Origin: Candidatus Avidehalobacter gallistercoris
Lineage (GTDB): Bacteria; Bacillota; Dehalobacteriia; UBA4068; UBA4997
Direction of reading: 5' to 3'
Length of the DNA: 64,000 nt
Assembly (NCBI GenBank): GCA_018715045.1
Contig: DVMH01000022.1
Location: 10,291-74,290 of the forward strand
Numbering within the stretch: the first letter of the stretch is position 1; each line of letters starts with the position of its first letter. The translations under genes and the position numbers were made by a program. Below the pieces are notes generated by a model. That model made no database searches. It was given only the letters and a program-made list of their open reading frames with translations, and was not told the DNA's origin. Below, piece by piece: positions 9,872-50,406 of the stretch.

Positions 9872-9917
9872 AGCTTAAAACGGGAATTACAGTAAGGTAG
9901 ATTTTGAGGACAAAGCG

Positions 9918-11486: not shown

Positions 11487-11692
11487 GTTCAACCGTACGT
11501 TAGCTGCGTTGTTATAAGGTTTATAACGCGGAGAATAATATCTTCGCCTTTCAATGCCTGCTCCGGTGAGGTTTGGATAACGCTTTTCCCTATAATTTGG
11601 CAGTTCCCGGAGTCACAGAGTTTTATTGAAGTCCTGTCAGAAATACTGATTTTAGTTTAATTCTCAATTATTTTTTATAAGGAGAAATCGTT

Positions 11693-12805: not shown

Positions 12806-12820
12806 CGGGGCGGTGAGGAT

Positions 12821-13984: not shown

Positions 13985-14058
13985 GCGTCTAAACTTGAAA
14001 TTTCGCCAAAAACCCAGTAAAAAAGCACTTGTTTCAGGGGGAAAAAAGCAAAAAAGGC

Positions 14059-14087
14059 TTGAAACTTCGTTTGCCTGGTGTTAGAAT
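14059..14087 (+). promoter_or_regulatory. Strong sigma-A promoter for hbs (-35 TTGAAA, 17-nt spacer, extended -10 TGtTAGAAT)
   Basis: Read directly from the sequence; sits about 75 nt upstream of the HU start. Confidence 0.45.
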
Positions 14088-14161
14088 ATATATGATTTTA
14101 CGTTTGTATGCTCGTAGCGCCAGAAGAAGCTGCGCAGAGCAATAATATTTAGGAGGATTTA

Positions 14162-14440
14162 ATGATGAACAAAACCGAATTGATTAATGCTATCGCGGCG
14201 GAAGCGGAAATCAGCAAAAAGGACGCCGGCAAGGCTCTGGAGGCCTTTGTAGACGTGGTAACTAATAGCTTGAAGAAAGATGACAAGGTTCAGCTGATCG
14301 GCTTTGGCACTTTTGAAGTGCGTGAGCGCGCTGCTCGCGAGGGTCATAATCCGCAGACCGGCAAGAAGATCACCATTGCAGCTGCCAAGGTGCCTGCGTT
14401 TAAGGCTGGCAAGGCTTTGAAAGACGCCGTGGCGAAATAA
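14162..14440 (+). CDS. hbs: DNA-binding protein HU
   Basis: 92 aa with the canonical HU sequence ([11 protein letters not shown]...[44 protein letters not shown]). Confidence 0.95.
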
Positions 14441-14518
14441 GCAGGCAAAACTATTTCGGCTTTGGTAGAGGAGAGGCGGCAGCTTCTCCTCTTTTCTTCA
14501 TCTGTCAGGAGGAACGTT

Positions 14519-14794
14519 ATGCGATTGGATAAATTTTTAAAAGTTTCACGCCTGATTAAGCGCCGCACAGTGGCCAAGGATGTGAGCGGCGCAGGCAAAA
14601 TTCTGATCAATGGACGACCCGCCAAGGCGGCTAGTGATGTGAAAGCGGGGGATAAGCTGACACTGCTTTTCGGTCGTCGTGAAGTGGAACTGGAGGTTTT
14701 GGAGGTTGCCGAAACCAAGCGCGCTGACCAGGCGCAGGAGATGTATAAAATTCTGCGCGAGGAGAATATCGCCTCTGAGGATCAGAGCTTCTGA
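14519..14794 (+). CDS. yabO: S4-domain RNA-binding protein (YabO/Hsp15-like)
   Basis: MRLDKFLKVSRLIKRRTVAKD is an S4 domain. AGGAGGA SD lies 6 nt upstream of ATG 14519; the track ORF begins earlier at TTG. Confidence 0.8.
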   Translation: MRLDKFLKVSRLIKRRTVAKDVSGAGKILINGRPAKAASDVKAGDKLTLLFGRREVELEVLEVAETKRADQAQEMYKILREENIASEDQSF

Positions 14795-14874
14795 TCAGGG
14801 ATTGTGACAAGCATACGCCAAGCTGTCGCCGCATATAATGCAGCAAGCGCAATCTGAGAGGGGCGTATGCTAAT

Positions 14875-20993: not shown

Positions 20994-22103
20994 TTAATAA
21001 ACCGTCACAATATAAAGCGCATCCTGCGTGTCGTTTCCGGCCACGTAAAGCAGCGTCTTATTGTCAGTGCTCCAGCAGACATCCTTGACGTTTTGATCGG
21101 ATATCTGATATATACGCTGCTCCAGCGGATAGCCTAAAAACAAATTGCCCTCATTGTTGGTGAACAGCAGTTTAGAGGAATCCGGCGACCAAGCAAGGAT
21201 ATTGCCACCGCTCTCGGAGGTCAGCTGGAAAACATCGCCGTCCAACAGGGATATCCACACGCCGTCAGTGCTGTTCTGCGCCAACATTGTGCTATCAGGT
21301 GACGTTACCAGCGTGGTGCTGTCCACCGGGGCGGTTGTCGAGGTCAGAAGCTGCGTCACGCCGGGCAGATCGCTTTTTGCGGCCTGCACCGAAGCCTGCG
21401 GCTCGCCGGCGTTTGCCAAATCAACTCGCCAGGAATAGGCATTCACGTTGTCCGCTGTGTAGAAAACGGCGTTTTTATCGGCAAAGCCGGGCTGATAAAT
21501 ATGGCTGTTTTCTACTTCCGCCACCAGGCGGGTAGCCAAAGAATCTTTCATTTCTATGCCGTAAGCTGTGCGAGGCAGGATCAGCTCGCCGTCCTGCACC
21601 TCTGCCGGCGGTTCCTGGTCAGATACAGGCGTTGGTTCTGTCTGTTCCGGCGTGGTCATGATGTCCGCAGCAGGTGTCTGCATTACTGGCGCATCAGATG
21701 TGTTCGTTGTATCAGGTTCTCTCGATGCGGTAGTTTCCGGCGTTTGAACCGACTGTTCAGCCTTGTCTGGCTCCGGTGCGGTGAATAATGGCTGCTCTGC
21801 AATTTGCAGCGGCTTGGCAGCAGGAACCGCCGGCTGGTCGGCTGAGGGAGCTGCCACAGCTACGAACAGCAGCAGGGCGGCTGCACATGAGGCTGCGCCC
21901 AGCGCGAAGCGGCGGAACGGGAAGCGTATCACCTTGGGAGAAGCTTGTGCTGGCTGTTCTGTGGCGATTGCATTCATCACACGGCTGGAAAAATCGCAAG
22001 GAGGTTCAACGGGCTTTAAGCTGGCCTTAAGCAATTCTTCAAAAGCGTCGTCGGATAGCGCCTGGTTTAATCGGTCGTCAAGCTTTTTGGCCATGCCCTT
22101 CAT
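20994..22103 (-). CDS. Anti-sigma factor: N-terminal cytoplasmic domain, one TM segment, extracytoplasmic Pro/Thr-rich linker and C-terminal beta-propeller-like domain
   Basis: Lies directly downstream of, and co-oriented with, the ECF sigma gene. TM segment FALGAASCAAALLLFVAVAA. C-terminal TolB/WD40-like repeats (NILAWSPDSSKLLFTNNEGNLFLGY). Confidence 0.6.
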   Translation of the reverse strand: MKGMAKKLDDRLNQALSDDAFEELLKASLKPVEPPCDFSSRVMNAIATEQPAQASPKVIRFPFRRFALGAASCAAALLLFVAVAAPSADQPAVPAAKPLQIAEQPLFTAPEPDKAEQSVQTPETTASREPDTTNTSDAPVMQTPAADIMTTPEQTEPTPVSDQEPPAEVQDGELILPRTAYGIEMKDSLATRLVAEVENSHIYQPGFADKNAVFYTADNVNAYSWRVDLANAGEPQASVQAAKSDLPGVTQLLTSTTAPVDSTTLVTSPDSTMLAQNSTDGVWISLLDGDVFQLTSESGGNILAWSPDSSKLLFTNNEGNLFLGYPLEQRIYQISDQNVKDVCWSTDNKTLLYVAGNDTQDALYIVTVY

Positions 22104-22162
22104 CTCCTTTCATTTTTGTGTTCATATTGACAATGTTAAGTGGAAAGTCAGGAAAGCTTTGG

Positions 22163-22723
22163 TCAGCGCAGCAAGTCTTTCAGGCGTTGCTGTAATTGCT
22201 TCTTGCCGCGAAACAGTCGCGTTTCCACTGTGGAAATAGGCAAGTTCAGCACGTCGGCAATCTGCTGGTAAGACATATCCTCGATATAGCGCAGATAAAT
22301 TACGTCACGGTAATTATCTGGCAAACCGGCGATGGCCTGATCGATACTCTGACGGATCTCTCTGTTCAGGTAATCCTGCTCTGGCTCGCTTGCCCCGGTT
22401 TTGACCTCGTCGCCGAAATATTCCTCCGCCCTTTCCACCGGAATGACGTTGGCGGGCTTCTTGGCGAGCGCGTTCAGGCAGGTGTTCTGCGCCACGCGAT
22501 ACATCCAGGAGAAAAATTTTTTGCCCGGGTCATATCGTCTCAGCTGACTGTAAATCCTTAAAAAGGCCTCCTGCGCCAGATCAGCGGCCTCGTCATAATC
22601 GCCGATCAGGCGGTAAGCCATGCTGAAGATCTGCTTTTCATAACGCTTCACCAATTCGGCAAAAGCATCTTTATTACCCTGCTGAGCCAGCCGGGCCAAA
22701 TCTTCATCAAGGAGGTTATTCAT
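22163..22723 (-). CDS. ECF-type RNA polymerase sigma-70 family factor
   Basis: Region 2 (DEAADLAQEAFLRIYSQLRRYDP...FFSWMYRVAQN) and region 4 (YRDVIYLRYIEDMSYQQIADVLNLPISTVETRLFRGKKQL). Confidence 0.9.
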   Translation of the reverse strand: MNNLLDEDLARLAQQGNKDAFAELVKRYEKQIFSMAYRLIGDYDEAADLAQEAFLRIYSQLRRYDPGKKFFSWMYRVAQNTCLNALAKKPANVIPVERAEEYFGDEVKTGASEPEQDYLNREIRQSIDQAIAGLPDNYRDVIYLRYIEDMSYQQIADVLNLPISTVETRLFRGKKQLQQRLKDLLR

Positions 22724-23031: not shown

Positions 23032-24951
23032 GTGCAGGCATACCGATTGTTGGACGAGAAGGCCGCTTATCTTTATAACAGGGGCGAATACTTTCACGCC
23101 TATCATTCTTTGGGTGCGCATCCGCAAGAGATTGATGGGGTTCGGGGTACTGGTTTTGTCGTGTTTGCACCAAAGGCTTCTGCGGTAAATGTGGTTGGCG
23201 ATTTTAACGTATGGTGCGGCGAGGGTTTTGCCATGCAGCCGCTGGAGGGCGGCTTTTGGCAGCTTTTTGTGCCGGGCGTTGCTCCGGGCGCGTTATATAA
23301 ATACTGTATAACTACGCAGGACGGGAGAGTGCTTTATAAGGCCGACCCTTTTGCTTTTGCTTCTGAGAAAAGGCCTGGTACTGCCAGCCGGGTGGCGGAT
23401 ATTTCCGAATTCCGCTGGCATGATGCGAAGTGGCTTGCGGCACGGCGTAAGCATTCGCATTTTGAGCGACCGATGAATATTTATGAAATGCATCTGGGCA
23501 GCTGGCGGCGGCATGATGCAACGACGGATAACCCGGAGGGTTTTTGGGATTATACCGAATTGGCCGAACAGCTGCCGCCATATCTTAAGAAAATGGGCTA
23601 TACCTATGTGGAATTTATGCCGCTGATGGAGCATCCGCTGGACGATTCCTGGGGCTATCAGATTACCGGCTATTTTGCGCCTACCAGTCGCTTTGGTGAG
23701 CCGCAGGGTTTAATGCACCTGATCGACGCGCTGCACCAGGCTGGTATCGGCGTAATATTGGACTGGGTTCCGGGACATTTCTGCCGCGACGAGCAGGGGC
23801 TGGCGGAATTTGACGGCACGCCGCTTTATGAGGCGGAGGATCATGCTGTTTGGGGAACGTATAAATTCAATTTTACCAAATCTGAAGTGCAGAGTTTTCT
23901 GATCAGCAACGCATTTTTCTGGCTCGAGCAATATCATGCCGACGGTATTCGGGTGGACGGCGTGACCAGTATGTTATATCTGAACTTTGGCGTGGATAAT
24001 CCGGCTAAGAAGCGTTATAATCCTGACGGCAGCGAGGAATGTTACCCTGCTTCGGCGTTTATTCGCAAATTGAACCAAACGGTGAGTTCCTATTTCCCTG
24101 ATGTATTTATGGTGGCGGAGGAAAGCACCGCCTGGCCGTTGGTTACCTATCCTCCCTCGGCGGGAGGGCTGGGCTTCCATTATAAATGGGATATGGGCTG
24201 GATGAACGATACCCTGCGCTATATGAGTATCGATTTCCCCGGGCGGCCATACAACCACCGGCTGCTGACGTTCTCAATGATGTACGCGTTCAATGAGAAT
24301 TTTATCCTGCCGCTTTCGCATGACGAGGTGGTGCATGGCAAATGTTCGCTGATCGGGCGAATGCCAGGCGATTATTGGCGGCAGTTTGCGGGTCTGCGTT
24401 TGCTTTATATGTATCAGCTGACGCACAGCGGGGCAAAACTTAATTTTATGGGCAGTGAGATAGGCCAGTTTATCGAATGGCGTTTTGCCGAGCAGTTGGA
24501 ATGGTTTCTGCTGGATTATCCGGCGCATTTGGCGCACCAGCGGTTTGTGGCGGCGGCCAATCAGATTTATTTGAAAGAAAGGGCATTATGGCAGCAAAAC
24601 TATGCCTGGGAGGGTTTTGTATGGGAAGAGGCGGACAACGAGCAGCAGGGCGTGCTGATCTTTCGGCGGCAGGGCAGGAGAGCGCGCGATTTTCTGCTGG
24701 TAATATTGAATTTTCAGCCGCAAACATATTACGATTACTCTGTGGGTGTGCCGCACGGCGGCAGGTATAGCGAGATATTAAACAGCGACGCGGCGGATTT
24801 TGGCGGCAGCGGCAAAATCAACCCGCAGGAGATTCGCGCGGTCAAACTGCCTAAATTATGCGGCGAAGCGCAGCTTATGCATGGGCAGCCCTACGCGATA
24901 AAACTGACGGTTCCTCCACTGGGCGGGGTTATAATTAAGCCTCATTCCTAG
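23032..24951 (+). CDS. glgB: 1,4-alpha-glucan branching enzyme
   Basis: 639 aa; GH13 branching-enzyme motifs (GYTYVEFMPLMEHP...SWGYQ, DWVPGHF, HYKWDMGWM). GTG start. Confidence 0.9.
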   Translation: MQAYRLLDEKAAYLYNRGEYFHAYHSLGAHPQEIDGVRGTGFVVFAPKASAVNVVGDFNVWCGEGFAMQPLEGGFWQLFVPGVAPGALYKYCITTQDGRVLYKADPFAFASEKRPGTASRVADISEFRWHDAKWLAARRKHSHFERPMNIYEMHLGSWRRHDATTDNPEGFWDYTELAEQLPPYLKKMGYTYVEFMPLMEHPLDDSWGYQITGYFAPTSRFGEPQGLMHLIDALHQAGIGVILDWVPGHFCRDEQGLAEFDGTPLYEAEDHAVWGTYKFNFTKSEVQSFLISNAFFWLEQYHADGIRVDGVTSMLYLNFGVDNPAKKRYNPDGSEECYPASAFIRKLNQTVSSYFPDVFMVAEESTAWPLVTYPPSAGGLGFHYKWDMGWMNDTLRYMSIDFPGRPYNHRLLTFSMMYAFNENFILPLSHDEVVHGKCSLIGRMPGDYWRQFAGLRLLYMYQLTHSGAKLNFMGSEIGQFIEWRFAEQLEWFLLDYPAHLAHQRFVAAANQIYLKERALWQQNYAWEGFVWEEADNEQQGVLIFRRQGRRARDFLLVILNFQPQTYYDYSVGVPHGGRYSEILNSDAADFGGSGKINPQEIRAVKLPKLCGEAQLMHGQPYAIKLTVPPLGGVIIKPHS

Positions 24952-24989: not shown

Positions 24990-27431
24990 ATGACAGAAAC
25001 GATGGGTACGAGGATATTCCAGGACAAAGCCGAGTTCGTGCGGGAATATAAAAACGAATTTCTGCGCTCAGTGGCCGAACCTTTTGAAACCTGCGACAAG
25101 CAGGGAAAATATGCGGCGCTGGTGCGGCTGATTGCAGGCAAAGCGGCAATCCTTTCGTCAGAGACGCAGCAGCGGCATCAGGACAATTCTGCCAAGCAGG
25201 TCTATTATTTTTCAATGGAGTTTCTGATTGGGCGGCTGCTTCAAAATTACCTTTTGAATCTGGGCGTTACAGACATTGTGCGGGAGGGGCTGGCGGAGCT
25301 TGGCGAGGATTTGGACGAGCTTTGCGCCTGTGAGCGTGATCCCGGTCTCGGCAACGGTGGCCTGGGGCGTTTGGCAGCCTGTTTTTTGGACTCTTTGGCC
25401 TGTTTAGGCCTGGCGGGATATGGCATGGGTATCCGCTATCGTTACGGCCTGTTTCGCCAGCGTATTGTGGACGGCGCCCAGCATGAGGAGCCGGACGACT
25501 GGCTGGCCTATGGCTTCCCGTGGGAGCTTTGCAAGCAGGAGGATGCGGTGGAGGTGCGCTTCGGCGGCGAGGTGCAGCGGCAGTATCATGACGGGCGGCT
25601 GTTCTTTCGCCATCATGGCTATAAGGCGGTGCGCGCCGTGCCGTATGACGTGCCGATAGTCGGCTTCGGCAATAGTACGGTGAATAAACTCCGCTTATGG
25701 TCGGCGCAGCCAGTGCAGGAAAAACTTGATCTGGCGGCTTTTAATCGGGGTGATTACAGTGCCGCTATGCGCGACCGCAATGACGTAAAGGCCATCACCT
25801 GCATTTTATACCCTGATGACAGTACCGATGCCGGCAAAGTTCTGCGGCTGAAGCAGGAATACTTTTTCACTTCGGCGGGCTTGCAGTCGATTTTGAATCA
25901 GTATAAGGAACGGTTCGGTAGTGCGGCGTGGGATGAATTCCCGCAGCGGGTGGCGGTGCATATTAATGACACGCACCCTGCTCTGGCCGTGCCAGAGCTG
26001 ATGCGTCTGCTGGTTGATGAAGAGAACGTTGGCTGGGACGAGGCATGGCGCATAACTACCAGCACTATCTCCTACACCAATCACACGGTGCTTCCTGAGG
26101 CGCTGGAGAAATGGGCGATTGATCTGGTGCGGACGCTGCTGCCCCGTGTGTATATGATAATTGAAGAAATTGACCGCCGCTACCGTGAGAGCTTCGCGGG
26201 AGCGGATGCGGGCTGGCAGGAGCGTCTGAAAGCCACCGCTGTGCTTTGGGATGGTCAGGTTCGTATGGCGAATTTATCCGTTATTGGCAGTCATGCCGTT
26301 AACGGTGTTGCCGAATTGCACACCGAGATATTAAAGCATGACGTTTTGCGAGATTTTTATCAATTGACGCCGGAAAAGTTCCAGAATAAGACTAACGGAG
26401 TCAGTCATCGCCGCTTTTTATTGGCGGCTAATCCTGGTCTTTCCCGCCTGATTGACGAGGCTATCGGCGATGACTGGCAGAAAGACGCGGATGAGCTGGA
26501 AAAACTGCTGCCCTATGCGGCTGACGCCAAATTTCAGGCGGATTTTGCCGCTGTAAAGCGGCAGAACAAGCAGCGTCTGGCCGAATATGTGCGAAGAAGC
26601 AGCGGCGTGCTGCTTGATCCGGATGCAGTTTTTGATGTGCAGGTAAAGCGTATCCATGCCTATAAGCGGCAGCTGTTGAATGTGTTTAAGATTATGCATC
26701 TGTATAACCTGTTGAAGTCTGGCGAGGCGGCCGATTTGCCGCCAACCTGTTTCATTTTTGCCGGCAAGGCGGCGCAGGGTTATGCGTTTGCCAAAGAGGT
26801 TATCAGGCTGATTTGCAGCGTGGCCAGCCTGGTGAACAGCGACCCCATCTGCCGCGGACATTTGCAGGTGGCGTTTATTGAGAATTTTAACGTCAGCACG
26901 GGCGAGATTATCTATCCGGCTGCCGACATCAGCGAACAGATATCCACTGCCGGCAAGGAGGCCAGCGGCACTGGCAACATGAAGTTTATGTTTAACGGCG
27001 CGGTGACGCTGGGAACTTTGGACGGCGCTAATATTGAGATTCTGGAGCGTGTGGGTCGCGATAACATCTGCATTTTTGGCCTGACAGCAGAGCAGGTCAT
27101 GGATTATTATCTCTCCGGCGGTTATCTGGCTTTTGACGAATGTAAGAACGACGCACGACTGAAAAGACTGACTGAGCAGCTGGTTGACGGTACGTTTGCT
27201 GCGGCTGGCGGCGATTTCTGGGGGATTTATGACCCGTTGCTGCGGAATAATGACGAATACTTTGTGCTTAAGGATTTCGGCGCGTATCTGGCGGCCTGGC
27301 AGCAGGTGGCTGGCTGGTATCAGCAGCCGGATCTTTGGCGGCAGATGGCCGTGACTAACGTTGCAAAAGCGGGTTATTTCAGTAGTGATCGCACTATCCG
27401 GGAATACGCGCAGGATATCTGGCATCTGTAA
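24990..27431 (+). CDS. glgP: Glycogen/alpha-glucan phosphorylase
   Basis: 813 aa; YFSMEFLIGR, the PLP-lysine region EISTAGKEASGTGNMKFMFNGA and TSISYTNHTVLPEALE. Confidence 0.92.
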   Translation: MTETMGTRIFQDKAEFVREYKNEFLRSVAEPFETCDKQGKYAALVRLIAGKAAILSSETQQRHQDNSAKQVYYFSMEFLIGRLLQNYLLNLGVTDIVREGLAELGEDLDELCACERDPGLGNGGLGRLAACFLDSLACLGLAGYGMGIRYRYGLFRQRIVDGAQHEEPDDWLAYGFPWELCKQEDAVEVRFGGEVQRQYHDGRLFFRHHGYKAVRAVPYDVPIVGFGNSTVNKLRLWSAQPVQEKLDLAAFNRGDYSAAMRDRNDVKAITCILYPDDSTDAGKVLRLKQEYFFTSAGLQSILNQYKERFGSAAWDEFPQRVAVHINDTHPALAVPELMRLLVDEENVGWDEAWRITTSTISYTNHTVLPEALEKWAIDLVRTLLPRVYMIIEEIDRRYRESFAGADAGWQERLKATAVLWDGQVRMANLSVIGSHAVNGVAELHTEILKHDVLRDFYQLTPEKFQNKTNGVSHRRFLLAANPGLSRLIDEAIGDDWQKDADELEKLLPYAADAKFQADFAAVKRQNKQRLAEYVRRSSGVLLDPDAVFDVQVKRIHAYKRQLLNVFKIMHLYNLLKSGEAADLPPTCFIFAGKAAQGYAFAKEVIRLICSVASLVNSDPICRGHLQVAFIENFNVSTGEIIYPAADISEQISTAGKEASGTGNMKFMFNGAVTLGTLDGANIEILERVGRDNICIFGLTAEQVMDYYLSGGYLAFDECKNDARLKRLTEQLVDGTFAAAGGDFWGIYDPLLRNNDEYFVLKDFGAYLAAWQQVAGWYQQPDLWRQMAVTNVAKAGYFSSDRTIREYAQDIWHL

Positions 27432-27475
27432 ACGTAAGTATTGTTGAGAGTTTTGAGTGAGGGAGGTTTTCTTTG

Positions 27476-28636
27476 ATGAGCAAAAAAGAATGTCTGGCTA
27501 TGCTGCTGGCGGGCGGCCAAGGCAGCCGTCTGGGGGCGTTGACCAGAAAAATCGCCAAGCCGGCTGTTTCGTTCGGCGGCAAATACCGTATCATTGATTT
27601 CAGCCTAAGCAACTGTGTTAATTCCGGTATTGATACCGTGGGTGTGCTGACGCAGTATCGGCCGCTGATGCTGAATTCCTACATCGGTACTGGCGCGCCC
27701 TGGGATTTGGATGAGGCCGCAGGCGGTGTTTTCGTGCTGCCGCCGTATGCTACGCAGGACGGCGCGGAATGGTATAACGGTACTGCGGATGCGGTGTATA
27801 AAAATTTGGATTTTATTGAAAGCTATGACCCGGAATATGTGCTGATCATCTCCGGAGACCACCTTTATAAGATGGACTACAATCTGATGCTGGATTTCCA
27901 CAAGCAAAGCGGTGCGGAACTTACCGTTTCTGTCATTGAGGTGCCGCTGGAGGAAGCTGGACGTTTCGGTATCATCACGGCGGCGGCAGACGGCAAAATC
28001 GAGAAGTTTACTGAAAAGCCTGCCAATCCGGACAGCAATCTTGCCTCGATGGGGATCTACATATTCAACTGGCCAACGTTAAAGCAGGCGCTGTTGGCTG
28101 ACGCTAAACTCAGCGAGTCTGATCATGATTTCGGCAAGAACGTGATCCCCATGCTTTTAGCCGAGGGGAAACGCCTTTATGCCTATGCCTTTTCCGGCTA
28201 CTGGAAAGACGTTGGCACGATTGAAAGCTATTATCAGACCAGCATGGACCTGCTGCGTGAGGACAGCGAGTTTGACATCTTCTCTGGCGGGCAGCGCATT
28301 TTCAGCAATTCCAACATCTATCCGCCGCATTATGTGGGCGAGAATGCTGTCATTGAAAATGCCGTGGTTTGCAATGGCTGCACTGTGCTGGGTGAGGTGA
28401 AAAACTCTATTGTCAGCTCTGAGGCGTATGTGGGCGCAGGGGCTAAGGTGGAAAACGCCATACTTCTTCCCGGCGCACGGGTGGAAAACGGCGCCCGCGT
28501 CATGCGCGCTATCGTGGGCGAGGGCGCGGTGATTGAGATGAACGCTTATTTCGGCAGCATGGAAGAGACCGAGCCTGTGCAGGTCTGCGGCGACGGCGAG
28601 CATATCAAGGACGATTTGTGGAGCAGGGGGTATTAA
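27476..28636 (+). CDS. glgC: Glucose-1-phosphate adenylyltransferase
   Basis: [13 protein letters not shown]...[25 protein letters not shown] matches GlgC. GGGAGG SD precedes ATG 27476. Confidence 0.92.
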
Positions 28637-28637: not shown

Positions 28638-29741
28638 ATGAGCGGCAGAATTCTAGGACTGATTTCCTGCAACTATAATAACGACGCGTTTGGCAGCCTG
28701 ACTGCTGAACGAGGTATGGCGGCGCTGCCTTTCGGCGGACGCTACCGCGTGCTGGATTTTCCTCTTTCCAACATGGTGAACTCAGGCATACGCACGATCG
28801 GGCTGATTACGCCCTATCATTACCGCGCCATTATGGATCACGTCGGCGTGGGCAAGGAATGGTCGCTGAACCGCAAAAGCGGCGGTATGTTCATTCTGCC
28901 GGGCTCGATTTACGGACTGAAGAATATGCGCTCTACATTTCTTCTGCGCGACATAATTCAGAATCGTGCTTTTTTGGAGCGCGGCGATGAGGAATATGTC
29001 CTCGTTTCCGGCAGCCATAAGGTGTATAATATGGATATGCGGCCGCTTTTTGCGGCTCACCGTGCTTCTGGCTGTGATGTGACGCTGCTTTATAAACAAA
29101 CGGATGACGCTGAAAACCACAAAGAAAGCTATCTGATACTGGACGGTGACCGGGTCAAGGGCTTTGCAGCCGAGGCGCAGGGCAGCGCGGCTTGCTTTAT
29201 GGACTGCTTCATCATTAACCGCGAGCTGCTGCTTAAGTTTATCGAATGGTATAAGGCGCTGGGTTATCTGGATGTGATGGATATTATGGCGGAGAACCTG
29301 CCGAACCTGAACGTGGGTGCTTATCCGTTTGAGGGTTACCTGGGTCAGATGAACAATATCCGCGATTATATGGCCTGTTCGCAAGACCTGCTGCGTGAGG
29401 AGGTACGGCGAGAGGTGTTCTCTGCCGAGCATAAGGTTTGCACCAAAGCTCAGGATAACCCGCCCGCCAAATACGGCGTAAATCCCCTGGTACATAATGC
29501 GCTTGTGCCCACTGGCTGCATTATTGACGGCACGGTGGAAAACAGTATTCTGTTTCGCGGTGTTAAAGTGGGAGAGGGGGCGGTTGTCCGAAACTGTGTC
29601 ATCATGCAGAAAACCGTGGTGGAAGCGGGTGCAGTGCTGGAAAATGTCATCTGCGATAAATATGTGACCGTTAGCCGTGGCAACAAGCTGTTCGGTACGT
29701 CTGCCAAGCCGTTGGTGATACCCAAGGGAAGCGAAATTTAA
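28638..29741 (+). CDS. glgD: Glucose-1-phosphate adenylyltransferase regulatory subunit GlgD
   Basis: Paralog of GlgC lacking the GGxGxRL activator-site glycine run (ALPFGGRYRVLDFPLSNMVNSGI); sits immediately after glgC, as in Firmicutes. Confidence 0.85.
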   Translation: MSGRILGLISCNYNNDAFGSLTAERGMAALPFGGRYRVLDFPLSNMVNSGIRTIGLITPYHYRAIMDHVGVGKEWSLNRKSGGMFILPGSIYGLKNMRSTFLLRDIIQNRAFLERGDEEYVLVSGSHKVYNMDMRPLFAAHRASGCDVTLLYKQTDDAENHKESYLILDGDRVKGFAAEAQGSAACFMDCFIINRELLLKFIEWYKALGYLDVMDIMAENLPNLNVGAYPFEGYLGQMNNIRDYMACSQDLLREEVRREVFSAEHKVCTKAQDNPPAKYGVNPLVHNALVPTGCIIDGTVENSILFRGVKVGEGAVVRNCVIMQKTVVEAGAVLENVICDKYVTVSRGNKLFGTSAKPLVIPKGSEI

Positions 29742-29777: not shown

Positions 29778-31235
29778 ATGGTAAAAAGCAAAAATGCGCC
29801 GCGGGTTTTGTTTGCCAGCTTTGAGGCCGAGCCTTTCGGTAAAACCGGCGGCCTGGGCGAGGTGGCGGGGAGCCTGCCACAGGCGCTGAAACGGGCTGGT
29901 GCGGAGGTGCGCGTAATACTCCCGAAACTGCCGACTATGCCGGAAAGGCTTGCAGCGCGGCTTCAGCACGTGGCGGATTTTAAGCTGCCGCTGGGCTGGC
30001 GCTGGCAGTATTGCGGCGTTGAGCGGCTGGACTATAAGTATCAGACCTATTATTTCATCGATAATGAGTATTATTTTAAGCGCGGCGCTTTCTATGGCTA
30101 TGACGATGACGCCGAGCGCATCGCCTTTTTTGCCAAGGCGGTGCTGGAGGCTTTACAGTATATCCCGGATTTTCAACCGCAGCTTATCCACTGCAACGAC
30201 TGGCATACCGCGCTGGTGCCGGTGCTGCTTAGGGAGCAGTATATGCAGGCCGCGGGCTATAGTGGGATCAGAACGCTGTTTTCAGTGCATAATCTGAGAT
30301 TTCAGGGTAAATATGACCCCAATTTTTTGGGCGACGTATTGGGCTTGGCGGATAAAAAGCCCGCGCGTGATCAGCTTATCCGCGATGGGGCGCTGAATTA
30401 TATGTTGGGAGGGATCTGCTATGCCGACCGTCTGCTTACAGTGAGTCCCACCTATGCGGAGGAGATTTGTACGCCCGCTTTTGGCGAAGGGCTGGACGAT
30501 GTGTTCCGCCGTCGTGGGAATGTGCTGGCCGGCGTGTTAAACGGTATTGACGTTAAAACATATGACCCGGAGCGTGACAAATTTATTCCGGCCTGTTTCA
30601 GCGCTGCCAAAATGACCGGCAAGGCCGCCTGCAAAGCTGCCGCACAGCGCGAGTTCAACCTGCCGGAGCGGTCTGATTTGCCTATGTTGGTGCTTATAAG
30701 CCGTCTGACTGAGCAGAAAGGGCTTGACCTGCTGCTGCATATTCTGGGCGAACTGCTGGAGCAACCGGTGCAGGTGGCGGTACTGGGCGTTGGTGACCAA
30801 AAATATGAAAATGCTTTTCGCTGGTTTAACGATAAATATGAGAATTTTGCCTGCCGTCTGCAATTTGACGACCGGCTGGCGCATTTGCTTTATGCTGGGG
30901 GCGACGCTCTGTTGATGCCATCAAAATTCGAGCCATGCGGGCTGGCGCAGATGATTGCCATGCGCTATGGCACGTTGCCCATTGTGCGGGAAACAGGAGG
31001 GCTTAAAGATAGCGTCACACCTTATAACCAATATACTGGTGGAGGCACGGGCTTCAGCTTCGCCAATTATAACGCGCATGAGCTGCTGTTTACGGCAAAA
31101 ATGGCATTGAGTGTTTATTATGACAGCCCCAAGGTGTGGCGCCGTCTGCAAAAGCAGGCAATGGCGCAGGATTTCAGCTGGAACCGTTCGGCGGAAAAGT
31201 ATGTTGAAATTTATAAACAATTATTAAGCGAATAA
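29778..31235 (+). CDS. glgA: Glycogen synthase (ADP-glucose type)
   Basis: FASFEAEPFGKTGGLGEV...LP; GT5 family C-terminal motifs (PSKFEPCGLAQMIAMRYGTLPIVRETGGL). Confidence 0.92.
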   Translation: MVKSKNAPRVLFASFEAEPFGKTGGLGEVAGSLPQALKRAGAEVRVILPKLPTMPERLAARLQHVADFKLPLGWRWQYCGVERLDYKYQTYYFIDNEYYFKRGAFYGYDDDAERIAFFAKAVLEALQYIPDFQPQLIHCNDWHTALVPVLLREQYMQAAGYSGIRTLFSVHNLRFQGKYDPNFLGDVLGLADKKPARDQLIRDGALNYMLGGICYADRLLTVSPTYAEEICTPAFGEGLDDVFRRRGNVLAGVLNGIDVKTYDPERDKFIPACFSAAKMTGKAACKAAAQREFNLPERSDLPMLVLISRLTEQKGLDLLLHILGELLEQPVQVAVLGVGDQKYENAFRWFNDKYENFACRLQFDDRLAHLLYAGGDALLMPSKFEPCGLAQMIAMRYGTLPIVRETGGLKDSVTPYNQYTGGGTGFSFANYNAHELLFTAKMALSVYYDSPKVWRRLQKQAMAQDFSWNRSAEKYVEIYKQLLSE

Positions 31236-31250
31236 CGGAGATAATGCTTG

Positions 31251-34200
31251 ATGAGGCTTTTGCATGATTCCCACCGGGCGGAGTATCGCTCGCCTTTCGG
31301 TGCGCTGCCGCTGGGCAAGAGTTTAACTCTCTCTCTGGATGTTTGGGACGAGGATACCGAGGATGGTGGCTGGCTAACGGACGCCAAGCTGCGTGTTTGG
31401 CGTGAAGGACGGGGTGAAGAACTGCTGACGCTTACCCCTCAGATTTTAAGTGAAAATTACCGCCGTTTCAGCGTAACCATGCCGCCGGAGGAGGAACCGG
31501 GGCTGTTTTGGTATTATTTTATGTTGCAAGAAGCTTCGGGCAGTCTGCTTTTTTATGGCAACAATGCGGCGCACATGGGCGGCGTGGGAGAGATGAACCT
31601 CTCCGAACCCTGTTCTTATCAGGTGACGGTTTATCGACCAGAAGTTACTCCCGCCTGGTATCGGCGGGCGGTGTGCTATCAGATTTTTCCCGACCGTTTC
31701 TGCCGGGGCGATGATTGGCAGGACTGTCAGCGGCGGGCGGCAGCGGCTGATTGGCTTGGTTCCTGCCGCGTAGTGCAGCAAAGCTGGCATGACAAGCCGT
31801 TTTACGGCTATGACGACAAGGGGCGTGTGGTGCGCTGGCCATTTTTTGGCGGCAATCTTGCGGGTATTCGAGATAAGCTGCTGTATCTGAAAAGTCTCGG
31901 GGTGACGGCGGTTTACCTGAATCCTATCTTCCGTGCTACCTCCAATCACAAGTACGATACAGCGGATTATCGCCAGATCGATCCCAGTTTCGGTACGGAA
32001 GAAGACTTTGAGCTTCTTTGCGCGGCGGCGGCCAGGCTTGGTATCCGTATTATTCTGGACGGTGTGTTCAGTCACACCGGCGAGGACAGCCGTTATTTCA
32101 ACAAATTTGGCAATTATCCTGACCTGGGCGCGTATCAAAGCGAAGAATCGCTCTATTATTCGTGGTATAAATTTAAGAATTACCCGGAGGAATACGCCAG
32201 TTGGTGGGGTGTTTCTGCTTTGCCTGAGGTGAATGAGCAGGATGAAAGTTACCGCCGTTTTATGCTTGGTGAGGACGGTGTGGTGCGGTATTGGCTGCGG
32301 CATGGCGCTTCGGGCTGGCGGCTGGATGTGGCTGACGAACTGCCAGACGCGTTTATTCGGGATTTGCGGCAGGCTGCCAAGGCGGAAAAGCCGGACTCCC
32401 TGATTCTGGGCGAGGTGTGGGAGGACGCAAGCAACAAACGGAGCTATGGCGATCTGCGCTCCTATTTGCTGGGCGGCGAGCTGGACGCGACAATGAACTA
32501 TCCGTTCCGGGATCGTGCGCTGGCTTATCTTATGGGCGAGCAGAGGGCAGATGATTTGGCAGCGGCGCTTATGAGTCTGAAAGAGAATTATCCGCCGGAG
32601 CATTTCGCCGCGGCGCTGAATCTGCTGGGTTCACATGATACGCCGCGGGTGCTGACGGTGTTGTCAGGCGCTGTGGAGCCTGCCGACAAAATTGCGGCGG
32701 AGTATTTTACGCTTACGCCGGAACAGCGGGCATTGGCTAAAAGCCGTCTAAAACTACTTGCGCTCATGCAATTTGCTATGAGGGGTGTGCCGCACATTTA
32801 TTACGGCGACGAGGCGGGACTGGCTGGCTTTGCCGACCCATTTAACCGTGCGCCTTATCCATGGGGCGATGAGGATGATGAGCTGCTGGACTGGTACCGT
32901 CGCTTGAGCCGCCTGCGTGGAGAATACGATTTGCTGGTGGACGGAGATTTTCAACCGCAGGCGCTCTCACCGGACGTTTATGCCTGCCGCCGTTATTGGA
33001 CGGATAGCGATGAGAATCATGATGAGAATAATATAGAAGAAATCTGGTTGGTATGCAACCGATTGGGCGAGCCTCAAGAGGCCAAAGTGCCGCTTTCTGC
33101 TGCTTTCGGCTGGGGTATTGAGCTGCTTTCCGGCGAAGAAACGGATGTAAAAGGAGGTTTGAGTCGAATGCTGCCGCCTTATGGGGCGGAAATTTGGTTA
33201 TTCCGCTCTGCGGCGCCGCAGCCAATCAAACTTCCCCGTATGGCAGGCGTGCTGTGCCCAGTGTTGGCGCTGCCGACTTCCGAGGGGGGCTGGGTCTCTT
33301 CTTGCCGTCGTTTCGTGGATTTTCTGACTTTGGCTGGACAGAAATTGTGGCAGGTACTGCCGCTTAACCCGGTGGCGGAAAGCTTATCCCCCTACACGCC
33401 GCTTTCAGTGTTTGCAGGGCAGGAGCAGCTGGCGGCAGAGCTTTTGCGGTGTGTGGACTGGAGCGCCGAGCCGTCGGAGGAGTATTTTGAGTTTTGTCGT
33501 AATAACGCTGACTGGCTGGACGATTACGCTCTGTTTGCCGCTATCTGCGAGGCACGGGCGGGGCTGCCCTGGCAGCGCTGGCCACAGGCAGAGCGTGAAC
33601 GCGAGGATGTACCGCGTCTGATGGCCGCTTATGCTGAGGGGATGGAGAATTGCCGCCGCCGGCAGTATCTGTTCCGACGCGAATGGCATACTGTGAAAGA
33701 CTATGCTAACAAGCATGGCATACGTATTATCGGCGATCTGCCCATCTATCCTGCAGCGGCTGGAGCAGACGTTTGGGCGCACCGCGATTTGTTCCTGCTG
33801 GACGAGGCTGGTTATCCGCTTCTTTCCGCCGGTGTGCCGCCTGATTATTTTGCCGCCAGGGGACAGAACTGGGGTAACCCGCTTTATAACTGGGAAGCCA
33901 TGCGCCAGGATAACTACCGTTGGTGGCGTCGGCGTTTTGAGCTGGCGCTGGAGGATTTCGATTACCTGAGGCTTGATCATTTTCGCAGCTTTGCCGCTTT
34001 CTATGCGATACCGCAGGGCGAGGACGCAACGCAGGGATGCTGGCTGAAGGGGCCGGGGCATGGTTTTTTCCGCAGTATCGAGCGTGAACTGGGGCGTTTG
34101 CCTTTGCTGGCTGAGGATCTGGGCTTCCTGGACCGCGAGGTGTATAACCTGCTGCGGCTGGCAGCATACCCAGGTATGGCCGTTTATCAGTTTGAGCCGG

Positions 34201-34523
34201 AAAGAATTGCGGACGCGGCGTATCTCTCCGGGCGTGTTCTATATAGCGGTACGCATGATAACCAGACTTTGGCGGGCTGGCTTTCTGCCAGGGGTGGCGT
34301 GCCGGCGGTGGAGCGCGAACGGCAGGTGATAAATGAGCTTTATCAGAGTCAGGCGCCGTGGGTGATAATACCTTTGCAGGATATGTTCTCGTTGGGCGAT
34401 GAGGCGCGTCTGAACGTGCCGGGACAGGCCGAGGGCAACTGGCGCTGGCAGGCGGACTGGCAGCAATTCAAGCTGACGCTGGCGGCGGAGTATCAGAAAA
34501 TGGCCAAAAGTGCCGGACGTTAA
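31251..34523 (+). CDS. Two-domain protein: N-terminal GH13 alpha-amylase-family catalytic domain fused to C-terminal GH77 4-alpha-glucanotransferase (amylomaltase, MalQ-like)
   Basis: GH13 conserved regions I-IV (DGVFSHT; GWRLDVADE; LGEVWED; LLGSHDTPR). From about residue 660, RMAGVLCPVLALPTSEGG...FVDFL..AGQKLWQVLPLNP...SPY matches the MalQ N-terminus, and the rest matches GH77 (GDLPIYPAAAGADVW...NWGNPLYNWEAM). A single uninterrupted 1091-aa frame. Confidence 0.8.
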   Translation: MRLLHDSHRAEYRSPFGALPLGKSLTLSLDVWDEDTEDGGWLTDAKLRVWREGRGEELLTLTPQILSENYRRFSVTMPPEEEPGLFWYYFMLQEASGSLLFYGNNAAHMGGVGEMNLSEPCSYQVTVYRPEVTPAWYRRAVCYQIFPDRFCRGDDWQDCQRRAAAADWLGSCRVVQQSWHDKPFYGYDDKGRVVRWPFFGGNLAGIRDKLLYLKSLGVTAVYLNPIFRATSNHKYDTADYRQIDPSFGTEEDFELLCAAAARLGIRIILDGVFSHTGEDSRYFNKFGNYPDLGAYQSEESLYYSWYKFKNYPEEYASWWGVSALPEVNEQDESYRRFMLGEDGVVRYWLRHGASGWRLDVADELPDAFIRDLRQAAKAEKPDSLILGEVWEDASNKRSYGDLRSYLLGGELDATMNYPFRDRALAYLMGEQRADDLAAALMSLKENYPPEHFAAALNLLGSHDTPRVLTVLSGAVEPADKIAAEYFTLTPEQRALAKSRLKLLALMQFAMRGVPHIYYGDEAGLAGFADPFNRAPYPWGDEDDELLDWYRRLSRLRGEYDLLVDGDFQPQALSPDVYACRRYWTDSDENHDENNIEEIWLVCNRLGEPQEAKVPLSAAFGWGIELLSGEETDVKGGLSRMLPPYGAEIWLFRSAAPQPIKLPRMAGVLCPVLALPTSEGGWVSSCRRFVDFLTLAGQKLWQVLPLNPVAESLSPYTPLSVFAGQEQLAAELLRCVDWSAEPSEEYFEFCRNNADWLDDYALFAAICEARAGLPWQRWPQAEREREDVPRLMAAYAEGMENCRRRQYLFRREWHTVKDYANKHGIRIIGDLPIYPAAAGADVWAHRDLFLLDEAGYPLLSAGVPPDYFAARGQNWGNPLYNWEAMRQDNYRWWRRRFELALEDFDYLRLDHFRSFAAFYAIPQGEDATQGCWLKGPGHGFFRSIERELGRLPLLAEDLGFLDREVYNLLRLAAYPGMAVYQFEPERIADAAYLSGRVLYSGTHDNQTLAGWLSARGGVPAVERERQVINELYQSQAPWVIIPLQDMFSLGDEARLNVPGQAEGNWRWQADWQQFKLTLAAEYQKMAKSAGR

Positions 34524-34544: not shown

Positions 34545-36104
34545 ATGAAGATAACCGATAAACCGAACTGGCAGCTTTATCTGGATGAGGCAAGCGGTCT
34601 TGCGCTGGATTTTGGCGGGCTGCGGCAGCCGCTTGATTTGGCGGCATATGCAGAAAAGTGCGAACATGCGCTGGCCGCCATGCAGTCGCTGGAGGCGGGC
34701 GCTATTGCCAACCCGGACGAGGGACGCATGGTAGGGCATTATTGGCTGCGCCGGCCGGAAATTGCTCCCACGCTGCAAATCGCTGCTGAGATCACTGAAA
34801 CGCAGCAAAAAATCAGTGATTTTGTGCAAAAAATACACACAGGCGCTATCGTGGGCTGCACAGGACATCCGTTCACACAGGTTTTGGTCATCGGTATCGG
34901 CGGCAGCAGTCTGGGACCTGTGTTTGTTTCGCAGGCGCTTAAGTCGCAGCAGGATAAGATGAGGTTATATTTTATCGACAACACTGATCCAGACGGCATG
35001 GACAGCGTTTTTGCCGCGATTGGCGGGCATGATGCGCTGGCACAGACGCTGGTCATAGTTATCAGCAAAAGTGGCGGCACAATCGAGACGCAGAACGCCC
35101 TGGTTGAAACACAGGCGATGTTTGCCTCCGAGGGTTTGGATTTTTATGCCAACGCCGTGCGTATAACCCAGCGGGGCAGCGGTTTTGATACCGCTCCCGA
35201 CGCGGAGAAATGGCTGGCCGCTTTCCCGATGTGGAACTGGGTTGGCGGACGCACCTCGGTGCTTTCCGCTGTGGGGTTGCTGCCGCTGGCATTACAGGGT
35301 GTTGATACCGGGGCGTTGTTAGCCGGGGCGGCAGTTTGTGACGAGCTTGGCCGTGCGGAACCTGCTGCTAATCCTTCGCTGCTGCTGGCGCTGTTCTGGC
35401 TCAGTGAGACGCGGGGCGAGGGTGGCAGTTTGCTGGCAGTGCTGCCTTATAAAGACCGTCTAATGCTTTTGGCTAAATACTTGCAGCAGCTGGTGATGGA
35501 ATCGCTCGGCAAGGAGTTTGATCTGGCTGGGCGTGAGGTAAGGCAGGGTTTGGCGGTGCTTGGTAATAAGGGTTCCTCCGATCAGCATTCCTATGTGCAG
35601 CAGCTGGTGGCGGGGCCCCGGAATGCTTTTGTGGTGTTCATAGAGGCTCTTTCTGACCGGGAGGGCGCTTCTCCTGTCGTGCGGGAGGCGAGCACCAGCG
35701 GTGATTATTTGCAGGCGTTTCTGCTGGGAACCAACCAGGCTCTTTATGACCACGGCCAAAGCAGCGTTATCATCACTGTGCCGGAGGTTTCGGCTTATTA
35801 TGTCGGTATGCTGATTGCGCTATTCGAGCGCGCTGTGGGCTTCTATGCAGATTTTGTCGGCGTCAATGCTTATCATCAGCCGGCCGTGGAGTTCGGTAAA
35901 AAGGCGGCGGGAGATATCATCAGCCTGAAGAACCAGGCGTATCAATACCTTGCGGCGCGCCCGGGCGAGGCATATGACGCGGCGGCACTGGCCGGATTGC
36001 TGGGCGCAAGTGAACGGCAGCTTTGGCATATACTCAGGCATTTGGCGGCCAACCATGCTGAGATCAGTGAGCAGCACGGCGGATTTCTGTATGTGTCGGA
36101 ATAA
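34545..36104 (+). CDS. pgi: Glucose-6-phosphate isomerase
   Basis: 519 aa; SIS-domain motifs (VLVIGIGGSSLGP, ISKSGGTIET) and a C-terminal catalytic region (GNKGSSDQHSYVQQL). Confidence 0.85.
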   Translation: MKITDKPNWQLYLDEASGLALDFGGLRQPLDLAAYAEKCEHALAAMQSLEAGAIANPDEGRMVGHYWLRRPEIAPTLQIAAEITETQQKISDFVQKIHTGAIVGCTGHPFTQVLVIGIGGSSLGPVFVSQALKSQQDKMRLYFIDNTDPDGMDSVFAAIGGHDALAQTLVIVISKSGGTIETQNALVETQAMFASEGLDFYANAVRITQRGSGFDTAPDAEKWLAAFPMWNWVGGRTSVLSAVGLLPLALQGVDTGALLAGAAVCDELGRAEPAANPSLLLALFWLSETRGEGGSLLAVLPYKDRLMLLAKYLQQLVMESLGKEFDLAGREVRQGLAVLGNKGSSDQHSYVQQLVAGPRNAFVVFIEALSDREGASPVVREASTSGDYLQAFLLGTNQALYDHGQSSVIITVPEVSAYYVGMLIALFERAVGFYADFVGVNAYHQPAVEFGKKAAGDIISLKNQAYQYLAARPGEAYDAAALAGLLGASERQLWHILRHLAANHAEISEQHGGFLYVSE

Positions 36105-49086: not shown

Positions 49087-50406
49087 TTATTTCTTGGTGT
49101 CGGATTTTAACGGCAGGCCATATTCGTGATAGAAAGTATCCAGGATTCCGATATAATGGGGCTCCCATGGCTTGTTCTTGCCAAAATAGTGAATGACCAC
49201 GCTGTTTTCACGCACCCACTTGAGATTCAGCGTGGGGTTGGCTGGGTTGGCGTTGTAGAAAGCCAGGATTCTGTCGTTTATGTTGTAGAGCAGGGTGTCA
49301 AGAATCTTTACTCTATCCCCGTAGAGCGCAGTCAGAATGTCCTGATCAGGGAGGACAAGCAAGCGTTGGTTCTCGAGTCCATACTTCCGTATCTGGTCCA
49401 GATCCAAATGCTGCCGGAGCTGCGGGAGATTCATCAGCATGACCCCGGTGTTGATATAGGGAACATCTTTTTCAATTTTCAGACGGAATTTATTAAACTT
49501 CTGCAAAAAATCACCGGTATGTGTGCAGGCTGCAAACCAGTTACCAGCAAAATCGGTATGGTAAAGCTGCGTCAGCGGGTTGATCACCACCGTATCCACG
49601 TCCAGATAAAGCACACGATCCAAATCGCCGGGGAGCAGCAGGGGCGCTGCCAGGCGGTAATAGATTTGTTTCGGATACCGTGCTGTTTCCGGAAAACCTG
49701 CGAATAGATTTTCCGGAACATGGATGAACTGGAATTGGAACGGAGTTCCGGCCGCTTGCTGAACCGATTCTTTCATTTCGTCCGTTAAGTCGGAATGCAG
49801 GACATAGACCTGATAACGTCCGCCTCCGCCCCGTATCTGGATGGAGTGGAGGCAGCTGAGCAATAGTGGTATATATTTGTGGTTGATGGCGAATAGGAGA
49901 TTCATAGGCTTTCCATCAGTACTTTTTGCTGGCAGCTCCAAGGATGTGTGAGAGCCGGAGTTTTCCCGGAACTCATCTTTCAGAAAGGTTATATACTGTC
50001 TGAGAATGCGCAGGAACGTGAGCCGGTCATCCGGGGGTATCTGCTGAAACGCCCGCTGTTCCGCTTCGGTCATTGGCAGGACGATACTCTTGCCATAGGC
50101 CTGTCCTGTTGCGGTCAGATGGATATTTTTGCGGTTTCTGGTACCGGGAACCACCTCCAGAAAAGCATATCCTTTCCGTACCATCTGCGCGACCAGTGTG
50201 TTGACTGTCTGCTTGGAGAGCGACCAGACCTTGCAGATTTCTTTCTGAGATTGTTCTCCCTCAAACATGATCAGAGAATACCAGATCCAAAACTCATTCT
50301 CTGAAACGCCACATCGATTAATTGCCTGACGGTAGATCTCAAAAAACTCATTGAATTGCTGATTCAGGCTTTCTAACTGCTTATTGGCCATGTTGTCCAT
50401 ATTCAC
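49087..50406 (-). CDS. Fusion protein: N-terminal MarR-type winged-helix domain plus C-terminal GT8-family glycosyltransferase domain
   Basis: Residues about 1-140 carry a MarR wHTH (EQSQKEICKVWSLSKQTVNTLVAQMVRKGYAFLEVVPGTRNRKNIHLTATG). Residues about 175-439 carry GT8 motifs: NLLFAINHKYIPLLLSCLHS, the DxD motif YLDVDTVV, and YINTGVMLMNL. Confidence 0.7.
   Translation of the reverse strand: MNMDNMANKQLESLNQQFNEFFEIYRQAINRCGVSENEFWIWYSLIMFEGEQSQKEICKVWSLSKQTVNTLVAQMVRKGYAFLEVVPGTRNRKNIHLTATGQAYGKSIVLPMTEAEQRAFQQIPPDDRLTFLRILRQYITFLKDEFRENSGSHTSLELPAKSTDGKPMNLLFAINHKYIPLLLSCLHSIQIRGGGGRYQVYVLHSDLTDEMKESVQQAAGTPFQFQFIHVPENLFAGFPETARYPKQIYYRLAAPLLLPGDLDRVLYLDVDTVVINPLTQLYHTDFAGNWFAACTHTGDFLQKFNKFRLKIEKDVPYINTGVMLMNLPQLRQHLDLDQIRKYGLENQRLLVLPDQDILTALYGDRVKILDTLLYNINDRILAFYNANPANPTLNLKWVRENSVVIHYFGKNKPWEPHYIGILDTFYHEYGLPLKSDTKK

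Follow-up and report, generated by a model that had tools for sequence, protein, structure and literature searches.

A GH13 hydrolase fused to a GH77 amylomaltase in the glycogen operon of Candidatus Avidehalobacter gallistercoris: a predicted single-chain counterpart of MalZ and MalQ

In Escherichia coli, MalZ and MalQ are parts of the maltose/maltodextrin system, in which they share the labour of hydrolysis and disproportionation. In eukaryotic glycogen debranching enzyme (GDE; AGL/Gdb1) and in Sulfolobus TreX, transferase and hydrolase activities reside in one polypeptide serving glycogen catabolism (PMC4236520, PMC11046441). According to the sections of PMC4282360 and PMC4243779 used here, amy (LBA0686, GH13) is co-transcribed in the glgBCDAP-amy-pgm operon of Lactobacillus acidophilus and its product is treated as the debranching enzyme; glycogen was still formed after deletion of amy, and the sections of PMC4282360 contain no debranching assay. 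Here we describe a gene in a stretch of 64,000 nucleotides from Candidatus Avidehalobacter gallistercoris (contig DVMH01000022.1, hereafter the window), which joins a GH13 and a GH77 enzyme in one chain and follows glgB, glgP, glgC, glgD and glgA (Table 1). Its product is probably a cytoplasmic bifunctional alpha-glucan hydrolase-transferase that acts downstream of GlgP in glycogen/maltodextrin breakdown.

The gene forms a single uninterrupted open reading frame (ORF) on the + strand, from a TTG at 31248 to 34523, and its translation has 0 internal stops. Upstream of the ATG at 31251 are a GGAG, at a distance of 10 nt, and the stop of glgA, at 15 nt. The N-terminus from this ATG agrees with those of homologs (MxxxHNS..YRxPFGA) in an alignment of 35 sequences with 47-78% identity, on which the statements of invariance below are based. 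We therefore take this ATG as the start, as in the original prediction made from the sequence, and the protein as 1090 amino acids (aa) long. Pfam detected Alpha-amylase (PF00128) at aa 144-527 (7.1e-58, 197.3 bits vs a cutoff of 22) and Glyco_hydro_77 (PF02446; 5.6e-115, 385.3 bits vs a cutoff of 25), so that the continuous frame joins both domains in a single polypeptide, also as predicted. At least 120 full-length homolog clusters, all carrying PF00128 and PF02446, were found in a 90%-clustered protein collection; they are 1045-1157 aa long, show 45-98% identity over 96-100% of the query and stem from NCBI, ENA, JGI and Logan assemblies. An exhaustive HMMER search covered 1.84 billion representatives clustered at 50%; its best 150 matches were classified, and 39 of these representatives are fused. 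Neither GC content nor skew changes abruptly at the GH13/GH77 junction, and composition is unbroken there. The fusion is a genuine single chain, probably kept so by selection.

The GH13 half (aa 1-652) has the N, A/B and C domains and the conserved regions I-IV of E. coli MalZ and the neopullulanase group (GH13_20/GH13_21; 1sma, 1j0h, 1bvz, 1ji1), to which it is nearest, and its all-beta N-terminal domain is of the type usual for neopullulanase/MalZ-type GH13. The Asp nucleophile, the Glu acid/base and the Asp transition-state stabiliser (D463) are all present. Residues D359, E388, H462 and D463, like D909, E955 and D1003 of the GH77 half, are invariant in the alignment, which confirms the intact GH13 domain with four conserved regions of the original prediction. 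When compared by BLASTP with E. coli MalZ (maltodextrin glucosidase, GH13_21), the GH13 half gave 219 bits (2e-67, 32% identity over 552 columns), and the alignment takes in both the MalZ-type insertion between beta1 and beta2 and the GED(S/G)(I/V)VR(H/Y)WL segment. E. coli GlgX gave only 32 bits (7e-5) over 83 residues. Pfam found no match to CBM48 (PF02922) in the fusion, and GlgX models were absent from its 25 best NCBIfam matches; the CBM48 and the full-length GlgX match of the GlgX/isoamylase type (GH13_11) are thus both lacking.

Among solved structures, a PDB sequence search returned maltogenic amylase 1sma (7.3e-76), neopullulanase 1j0h (4.4e-71), TVAII 1bvz (3.2e-70), MalZ 5bn7 (2.4e-58) and the Nostoc enzyme NPDE 2wc7 (1.5e-53). 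Foldseek gave target-normalised TM-scores of 0.72-0.76 to structures of the MalZ/neopullulanase group. The rmsd was 5.6-5.9 A for TVAI, MalZ and Apg, which we take to be of GH13_21 type, and 7.3-8.0 A for TVAII, ThMA and neopullulanase, presumably domain-swapped GH13_20 dimers. The fusion differs from this group in several respects. Identity is only about 25-32% (E-values 2e-67 to 7e-76), region V reads LPEVN where neopullulanases have MPKLN, and a whole GH77 enzyme follows at the C-terminus, while the solved relatives all consist of one enzyme. The fusion also scored below the cutoffs of the NCBIfam models for MalZ (316.5 vs 568 bits) and cyclomaltodextrinase (293 vs 540). The safest label from these comparisons is therefore MalZ/neopullulanase-group, between GH13_20-like and GH13_21-like. 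The original prediction took this half for a debranching-type GH13 and named assignment to a non-debranching activity as counter-evidence; the grouping with MalZ/neopullulanase, at 2e-67 to MalZ, weakens that claim. Since neopullulanase-clade enzymes cleave some alpha-1,6 bonds, the grouping is nevertheless compatible with debranching.

Like Thermus amylomaltase, the GH77 half has the catalytic Asp, Glu and Asp and the GH77 fold, as judged by PF02446, alignment and Foldseek, and D909, E955 and D1003 align to Thermus D293, E340 and D395. Its match to Thermus amylomaltase 2owc was 6.8e-82, with target-normalised Foldseek TM-scores of about 0.80 to 1cwy and 2owc, while the long-type E. coli MalQ 4s3p gave 1.2e-14 only. 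By sequence it is thus of the Thermus/Aquifex/plant DPE1 type, unlike the long E. coli MalQ type. Identity to Thermus aquaticus/thermophilus amylomaltase (1cwy, 2owc) and plant DPE1 is 35-37%. It differs from these enzymes in carrying a GH13 unit N-terminally and in lacking about 40-48 residues of subdomain B2 (aa ~722-745, window 33330-33500), relative both to Thermus amylomaltase and to two of three standalone MalQs. This deletion is common to every fused homolog examined. It probably accounts for the near miss on the malQ equivalog TIGR00217 (199.9 bits vs a cutoff of 205.65), and the shortened region might be where the GH77 half contacts the GH13 unit. The complete MalQ-like amylomaltase of the original prediction therefore stands as regards PF02446 and the intact, invariant catalytic triad, but not as regards B2.

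In 30 of the 35 homologs the linker has exactly 12 residues, counted from the last strand of the GH13 C domain to the conserved R-x-A-G-V-L-C with which GH77 starts. The segment ...PRMAGVL... (aa 662-668), where the GH77 part had been predicted to begin, corresponds in alignments to the N-terminal end of Thermus amylomaltase and standalone MalQs, and this boundary holds. Its Met, however, had been read as a former start codon. Position 664 is Met (ATG 33240) in the fusion itself and in none of the other homologs (1/35); Ala occupies it in 15, Ser in 10 and Gly in four. Because this Met is unique to the sequence and no Shine-Dalgarno sequence precedes it, we reject Met664 as a relic or alternative start. 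A GC-rich hairpin (CCGCC-TTAT-GGGGCGG, then AAATTTGGTT; 33174-33189, + strand) lies within the ORF just upstream of the linker. It is probably due to chance, since terminator-like sites in the region are no commoner than in shuffled sequences (19 vs 20.8 expected).

An AlphaFold2 (AF2) model built from the 35-sequence alignment had a mean predicted local distance difference test score (pLDDT) of 90.1 and a predicted TM-score (pTM) of 0.88; pLDDT stayed at 50 or above in all segments. Residues 641-670 fall in blocks with scores of 96, 89 and 95, and the linker is ordered. For units of 650 and 430 aa, such a pTM would imply that the two enzymes are confidently placed in a rigid arrangement. No PDB chain spanned both halves in the Foldseek search, in which the query-normalised TM-score was at most 0.45. 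The sequence has no signal peptide and no hydrophobic leader, from which we place the protein in the cytoplasm.

The nearest genomic loci, at 86% and 78% identity, belong to metagenome-assembled genomes (MAGs) of uncultured Peptococcaceae from rabbit gut. Further relatives occur in Bacillota MAGs, Sporobacter termitidis and Anaerovorax odorimutans, and the fused form is also found in Atopobiaceae (Coriobacteriia). The order glgB-glgP-glgC-glgD-glgA-fusion recurs in four loci down to 47% identity: in S. termitidis (L031, 49%), in L032 (50%), where glucokinase and phosphoglucomutase genes follow, in L033 (60%), where pgi and a 4HBT-domain gene follow, and in L034 (47%), where pgi and glucokinase genes follow. 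In the window, pgi follows the fusion stop at 21 nt and is probably co-transcribed with the fusion. No convincing terminator stands out around the fusion, terminator-like sites being no commoner than in shuffles. The fusion is therefore not the last gene of the operon, which it had been said to close. A 4HBT-domain gene comes next and may belong to an extended operon; the same pair follows the fusion in L033 (4HBT gene at L033 15206-16270).

Standalone proteins of this GH13 clade, about 600-680 aa long and 41-53% identical, exist as well. One of them ends a glgB-glgC-glgD-glgA-glgP-GH13 operon (L037) and another, in Collinsella (L036), lies 1.5 kb from a glg cluster. In operon position, the L037 protein corresponds to the amy product of L. 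acidophilus, and this Amy, in contrast to the fusion, is not joined to GH77. A more distant standalone homolog of 649 aa (39% identity) is encoded in a complete Peptostreptococcaceae genome (L005, within the region 6767-13729). Adjacent separate GH13 and malQ genes, the Rosetta-stone arrangement, were found at none of L005, L036 and L037, and no split counterpart was found. In a crude neighbour-joining tree built from the GH13 halves, fused and standalone forms were intermixed; the nearest neighbour was itself fused for only 22 of the 39 fused sequences, and some of the standalone sequences may be contig-end fragments. Fusion or fission may have occurred once or several times.

The architecture has a name in the databases. 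NCBIfam NF011083 (PRK14510.1-2; 1186 positions) is called bifunctional glycogen debranching protein GlgX/4-alpha-glucanotransferase, and RefSeq WP_325390942.1 (P0124), 47% identical to the fusion, carries this name, with the same domain architecture and the same position in a glgB-glgP-glgC-glgD-glgA-fusion-pgi operon. A claim of novelty for the architecture is thus not supported. The NF011083 profile aligns to both halves of the fusion at 1103.7 bits, below its equivalog cutoff of 1322, and eight other homologs, at 1026-1160 bits, all fall below it too. Because the homologs score under this cutoff, NCBI names them only 4-alpha-glucanotransferase. Taken by itself, the GH13 half reaches 695.9 bits against NF011083, from which the GH13 part of that family appears to be this same MalZ-like clade and the GlgX in its name to be inherited, not demonstrated; the sequence of the fusion does not support that portion of the name. 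From its sequence, the fusion is a new member of a database-recognised family with predicted function only.

The fusion is, in our view, most likely the MalZ-MalQ division of labour joined in one chain. This reading draws on the conserved glg-operon position, the MalZ-like GH13, the Thermus-type GH77 and the invariance of both catalytic triads, and also on the standalone members of the GH13 clade at or beside glg operons (L037, L036), which recall the L. acidophilus layout. The fusion would be co-transcribed with glgB-glgP-glgC-glgD-glgA and pgi. GlgP would trim the outer chains of glycogen to a limit dextrin. Next, maltooligosaccharide segments that are short or close to a branch would be hydrolysed at the GH13 site, at alpha-1,4 and possibly alpha-1,6 bonds, and the GH77 site would disproportionate the short chains to glucose and to chains long enough for GlgP. 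Carbon would pass through phosphoglucomutase (a gene for which lies at 51597-53354 in the window), glucokinase and pgi into glycolysis. The architecture, the invariant active sites, the conservation, the operon context and the family affinities are direct results; which substrates and bonds are attacked, and whether the sites cooperate or channel, is inferred.

Several observations weigh against this reading. The Atopobiaceae fusion lies outside any glg operon, and the L005 standalone GH13 sits amid genes for a phosphotransferase system (PTS) EIICBA protein, a 2-hydroxyacid dehydrogenase and a sigma-54 activator, with no glg operon, so the GH13 clade is not exclusive to glycogen. The GH13 half falls between GH13_20-like and GH13_21-like and scores below the MalZ and cyclomaltodextrinase cutoffs, so bond specificity is unreadable from homology. 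Cooperation between the two active sites is without support beyond the high pTM of the model. Finally, full-text literature yielded no paper on a GH13-GH77 fusion and no biochemical or genetic evidence for any member, and the fusion goes unmentioned in a 2024 review of prokaryotic alpha-glucan enzymes.

A possible but unlikely alternative is that the fusion replaces GlgX in these bacteria by indirect debranching, convergent with eukaryotic GDE. In this scheme the GH77 site would transfer the maltotriosyl unit of a four-glucose limit stub to another chain, and the GH13 site would hydrolyse the alpha-1,6-linked glucose left behind. The scheme would account for the constant position of the fusion in glg operons across distant Clostridia, for a coupling predicted to be rigid with fixed linker length, and for the curated NCBI name, which already presumes debranching plus transferase activity. 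It also fits the gene content, since no glgX, pullulanase or other GH13 was found in the operon or the 64-kb window, in agreement with the original prediction for the operon. A phmmer search with GlgB and both halves of the fusion gave self-matches only, and so no other GH13 or GH77 paralog in the window; this search is insensitive, as GlgB failed to detect the fusion's own GH13, and Pfam was therefore run on another 20 ORFs, among them the plausible ones of 380 aa or more that were left. No glucosidase, GH13 or GH77 was found among these large ORFs. A GlgX or pullulanase may nevertheless be encoded outside the window, as is presumably the pullulanase of Bacillus subtilis outside glgBCDAP. The alpha-1,6 hydrolysis known for the neopullulanase clade is a weaker point in favour, together with the Val after the nucleophile (LDVADE), a residue typical of dual-specificity members of that clade. 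Against this, the GH13 half is MalZ-like and not GlgX-, pullulanase- or GH133-like, and this GH13 clade is not known to act as an amylo-1,6-glucosidase on single-glucose stubs. Standalone GH13 genes, moreover, stand in glg operons without an adjacent GH77 (L036, L037); evidently, then, the hydrolase does not need a transferase in its own chain.

The analogy with eukaryotic GDE, drawn in the original prediction, is sound as functional logic, with a transferase and a hydrolase in one chain, and does not extend to homology of architecture. GDE combines a GH13-like transferase with a GH133 (alpha/alpha)6 glucosidase, whereas in the fusion the transferase is GH77 and the hydrolase GH13. Only PF00128 and PF02446 were found, and the C-terminal half is GH77 by sequence and fold. 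Sulfolobus TreX carries out both reactions at one GH13 site, unlike the two separate (beta/alpha)8 enzymes of the fusion.

We consider it improbable that the GH13 half is a direct debrancher, cutting alpha-1,6-linked maltotriosyl or maltotetraosyl branches like GlgX for the GH77 half to recycle. The NF011083 name and an operon position comparable with the one that glgX holds in glgBXCAP of E. coli would agree with this, as would the presence of NPDE 2wc7 among the solved relatives, which we take to be a debranching enzyme of the neopullulanase group. The short, weak GlgX alignment, the lack of CBM48 and of GlgX models among the best matches, and the MalZ-like character of the NF011083 GH13 part itself all speak against it.

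Use of the module on imported maltooligosaccharides, with the glg linkage incidental, is highly improbable. It would match the role of MalZ and MalQ in E. coli, the PTS EIICBA gene beside the L005 homolog and the Atopobiaceae fusion away from glg genes; in the window, however, Pfam scans of the ORFs showed no adjacent maltodextrin transporter or mal regulator, and the glg-operon position is kept down to 47% identity. An assembly or sequencing artefact, in which a missed stop or a frameshift would have run two neighbouring genes into one, and against which the original prediction had cautioned, is virtually excluded by the same continuous fusion in at least 120 clusters from independent assemblies, the fixed linker length with conserved Arg663, the unbroken composition and the confidently modelled linker.

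Table 1. Features of the fusion gene and its operon in the window (nucleotide positions of the window; residues of the 1090-aa product).
Feature	Position	Strand	Evidence or remark
glgB (branching enzyme), first operon gene	23032..24951	+	NF008967, 839.6 bits vs cutoff 577
glgP (glycogen/alpha-glucan phosphorylase)	24990..27431	+	TIGR02093, 1090.1 bits
glgC (ADP-glucose pyrophosphorylase catalytic subunit)	27473..28636	+	NF003670, 563.1 bits
glgD (regulatory subunit)	28638..29741	+	TIGR02092, 340.4 bits
glgA (glycogen synthase)	29778..31235	+	NF001898, 640.9 bits
Whole fusion gene	31251..34523	+	1090 aa plus stop; ATG 31251; GGAG at 31237-31240
N-terminal all-beta domain, aa 1-130	31251..31640	+	AF2 strands E2-E128, pLDDT ~90; Foldseek alignment to TVAII, TVAI and MalZ spans ~670-690 columns
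GH13 catalytic (beta/alpha)8 domain with domain B, aa 133-565	31647..32945	+	Pfam, alignments, motifs
DGVFSH, aa 270-275	32058-32075	+	GH13 conserved region
LPEVN	32220-32234	+	GH13 region V; motif reading
GWRLDVADE, aa 355-363, nucleophile D359	32313-32339	+	GH13 conserved region
GEVWED, aa 387-392, acid/base E388	32409-32426	+	GH13 conserved region
GSHD, aa 460-463, H462 and D463	32628-32639	+	GH13 conserved region
IYYGDE	32796-32813	+	GH13 motif
GH13 C-terminal beta-sandwich, aa 566-652	32946..33206	+	AF2 strands E566-E652; aligned to C domain of ThMA and MalZ
Inter-enzyme linker, aa 653-663, RSAAPQPIKLPR, including conserved Arg663	33207..33239	+	pLDDT ~89-96; 35-homolog alignment
GH77 amylomaltase, aa 664-1090	33240..34520	+	Pfam, alignments, Foldseek; Thermus/DPE1 type
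LDHFR, aa 908-912, D909	33972-33986	+	GH77 catalytic motif
AEDLG, aa 954-958, E955	34110-34124	+	GH77 catalytic motif
THDN, aa 1001-1004, D1003	34251-34262	+	GH77 catalytic motif
pgi (glucose-6-phosphate isomerase)	34545..36104	+	own AAGGGGG ribosome-binding site
4HBT-domain gene, 333 aa	36122-37123	+	17 nt after pgi

The product of the 4HBT gene has a hotdog thioesterase domain in its first ~130 residues, and the remaining ~200 are without a family match. In the 86%-identical Peptococcaceae MAG (L001), the longest ORF at the glgP position (4078-6183) has only 701 aa vs 813 in the window, and the longest ORF at the pgi position (13204-14862) starts at a TTG overlapping the end of the fusion; differences in start codons or assembly are possible explanations of both. 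Divergent from glgB, at 20994-22723 on the - strand, lie an ECF-type sigma factor gene (22163-22723) and a 369-aa ORF without a Pfam match (20994-22103), which is possibly a candidate anti-sigma factor. A 439-aa ORF (49087-50406, - strand), about 1.2 kb from the phosphoglucomutase gene, has an unusual regulator-glycosyltransferase architecture, in which a MarR-type helix-turn-helix domain (PF12802, aa 45-89) precedes Glyco_transf_8 (PF01501, aa 169-415); glycogenin and lipopolysaccharide glucosyltransferases are members of the same GT8 family. An 862-aa protein (4875-7463, + strand) combines an NAGPA phosphodiester glycosidase domain (PF09992) with three C-terminal SLH repeats and is presumably anchored to the cell wall.

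Many Bacillota glycogen operons are without glgX, and the resolution of branch points there is poorly documented. The fusion and its standalone GH13 relatives fill the expected debrancher slot across gut and environmental Clostridia, and the comparison links the fused GH13 to the operon-terminal Amy-type GH13 of other Bacillota. It is conceivable, though we doubt it, that many GlgX-less Clostridia and some Coriobacteriia debranch glycogen with this polypeptide, as a convergent bacterial analogue of indirect debranching. For annotation, the GH13 half is better called MalZ/neopullulanase-like than GlgX-like; the bifunctional GlgX name in RefSeq currently rests on no visible evidence. If the fusion does debranch, GlgX and pullulanase would be joined by a third route in bacteria, and the RefSeq name would be justified. 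If it does not, thousands of database entries would be mislabelled GlgX, and the protein would be a MalZ-MalQ module for maltodextrin recycling.

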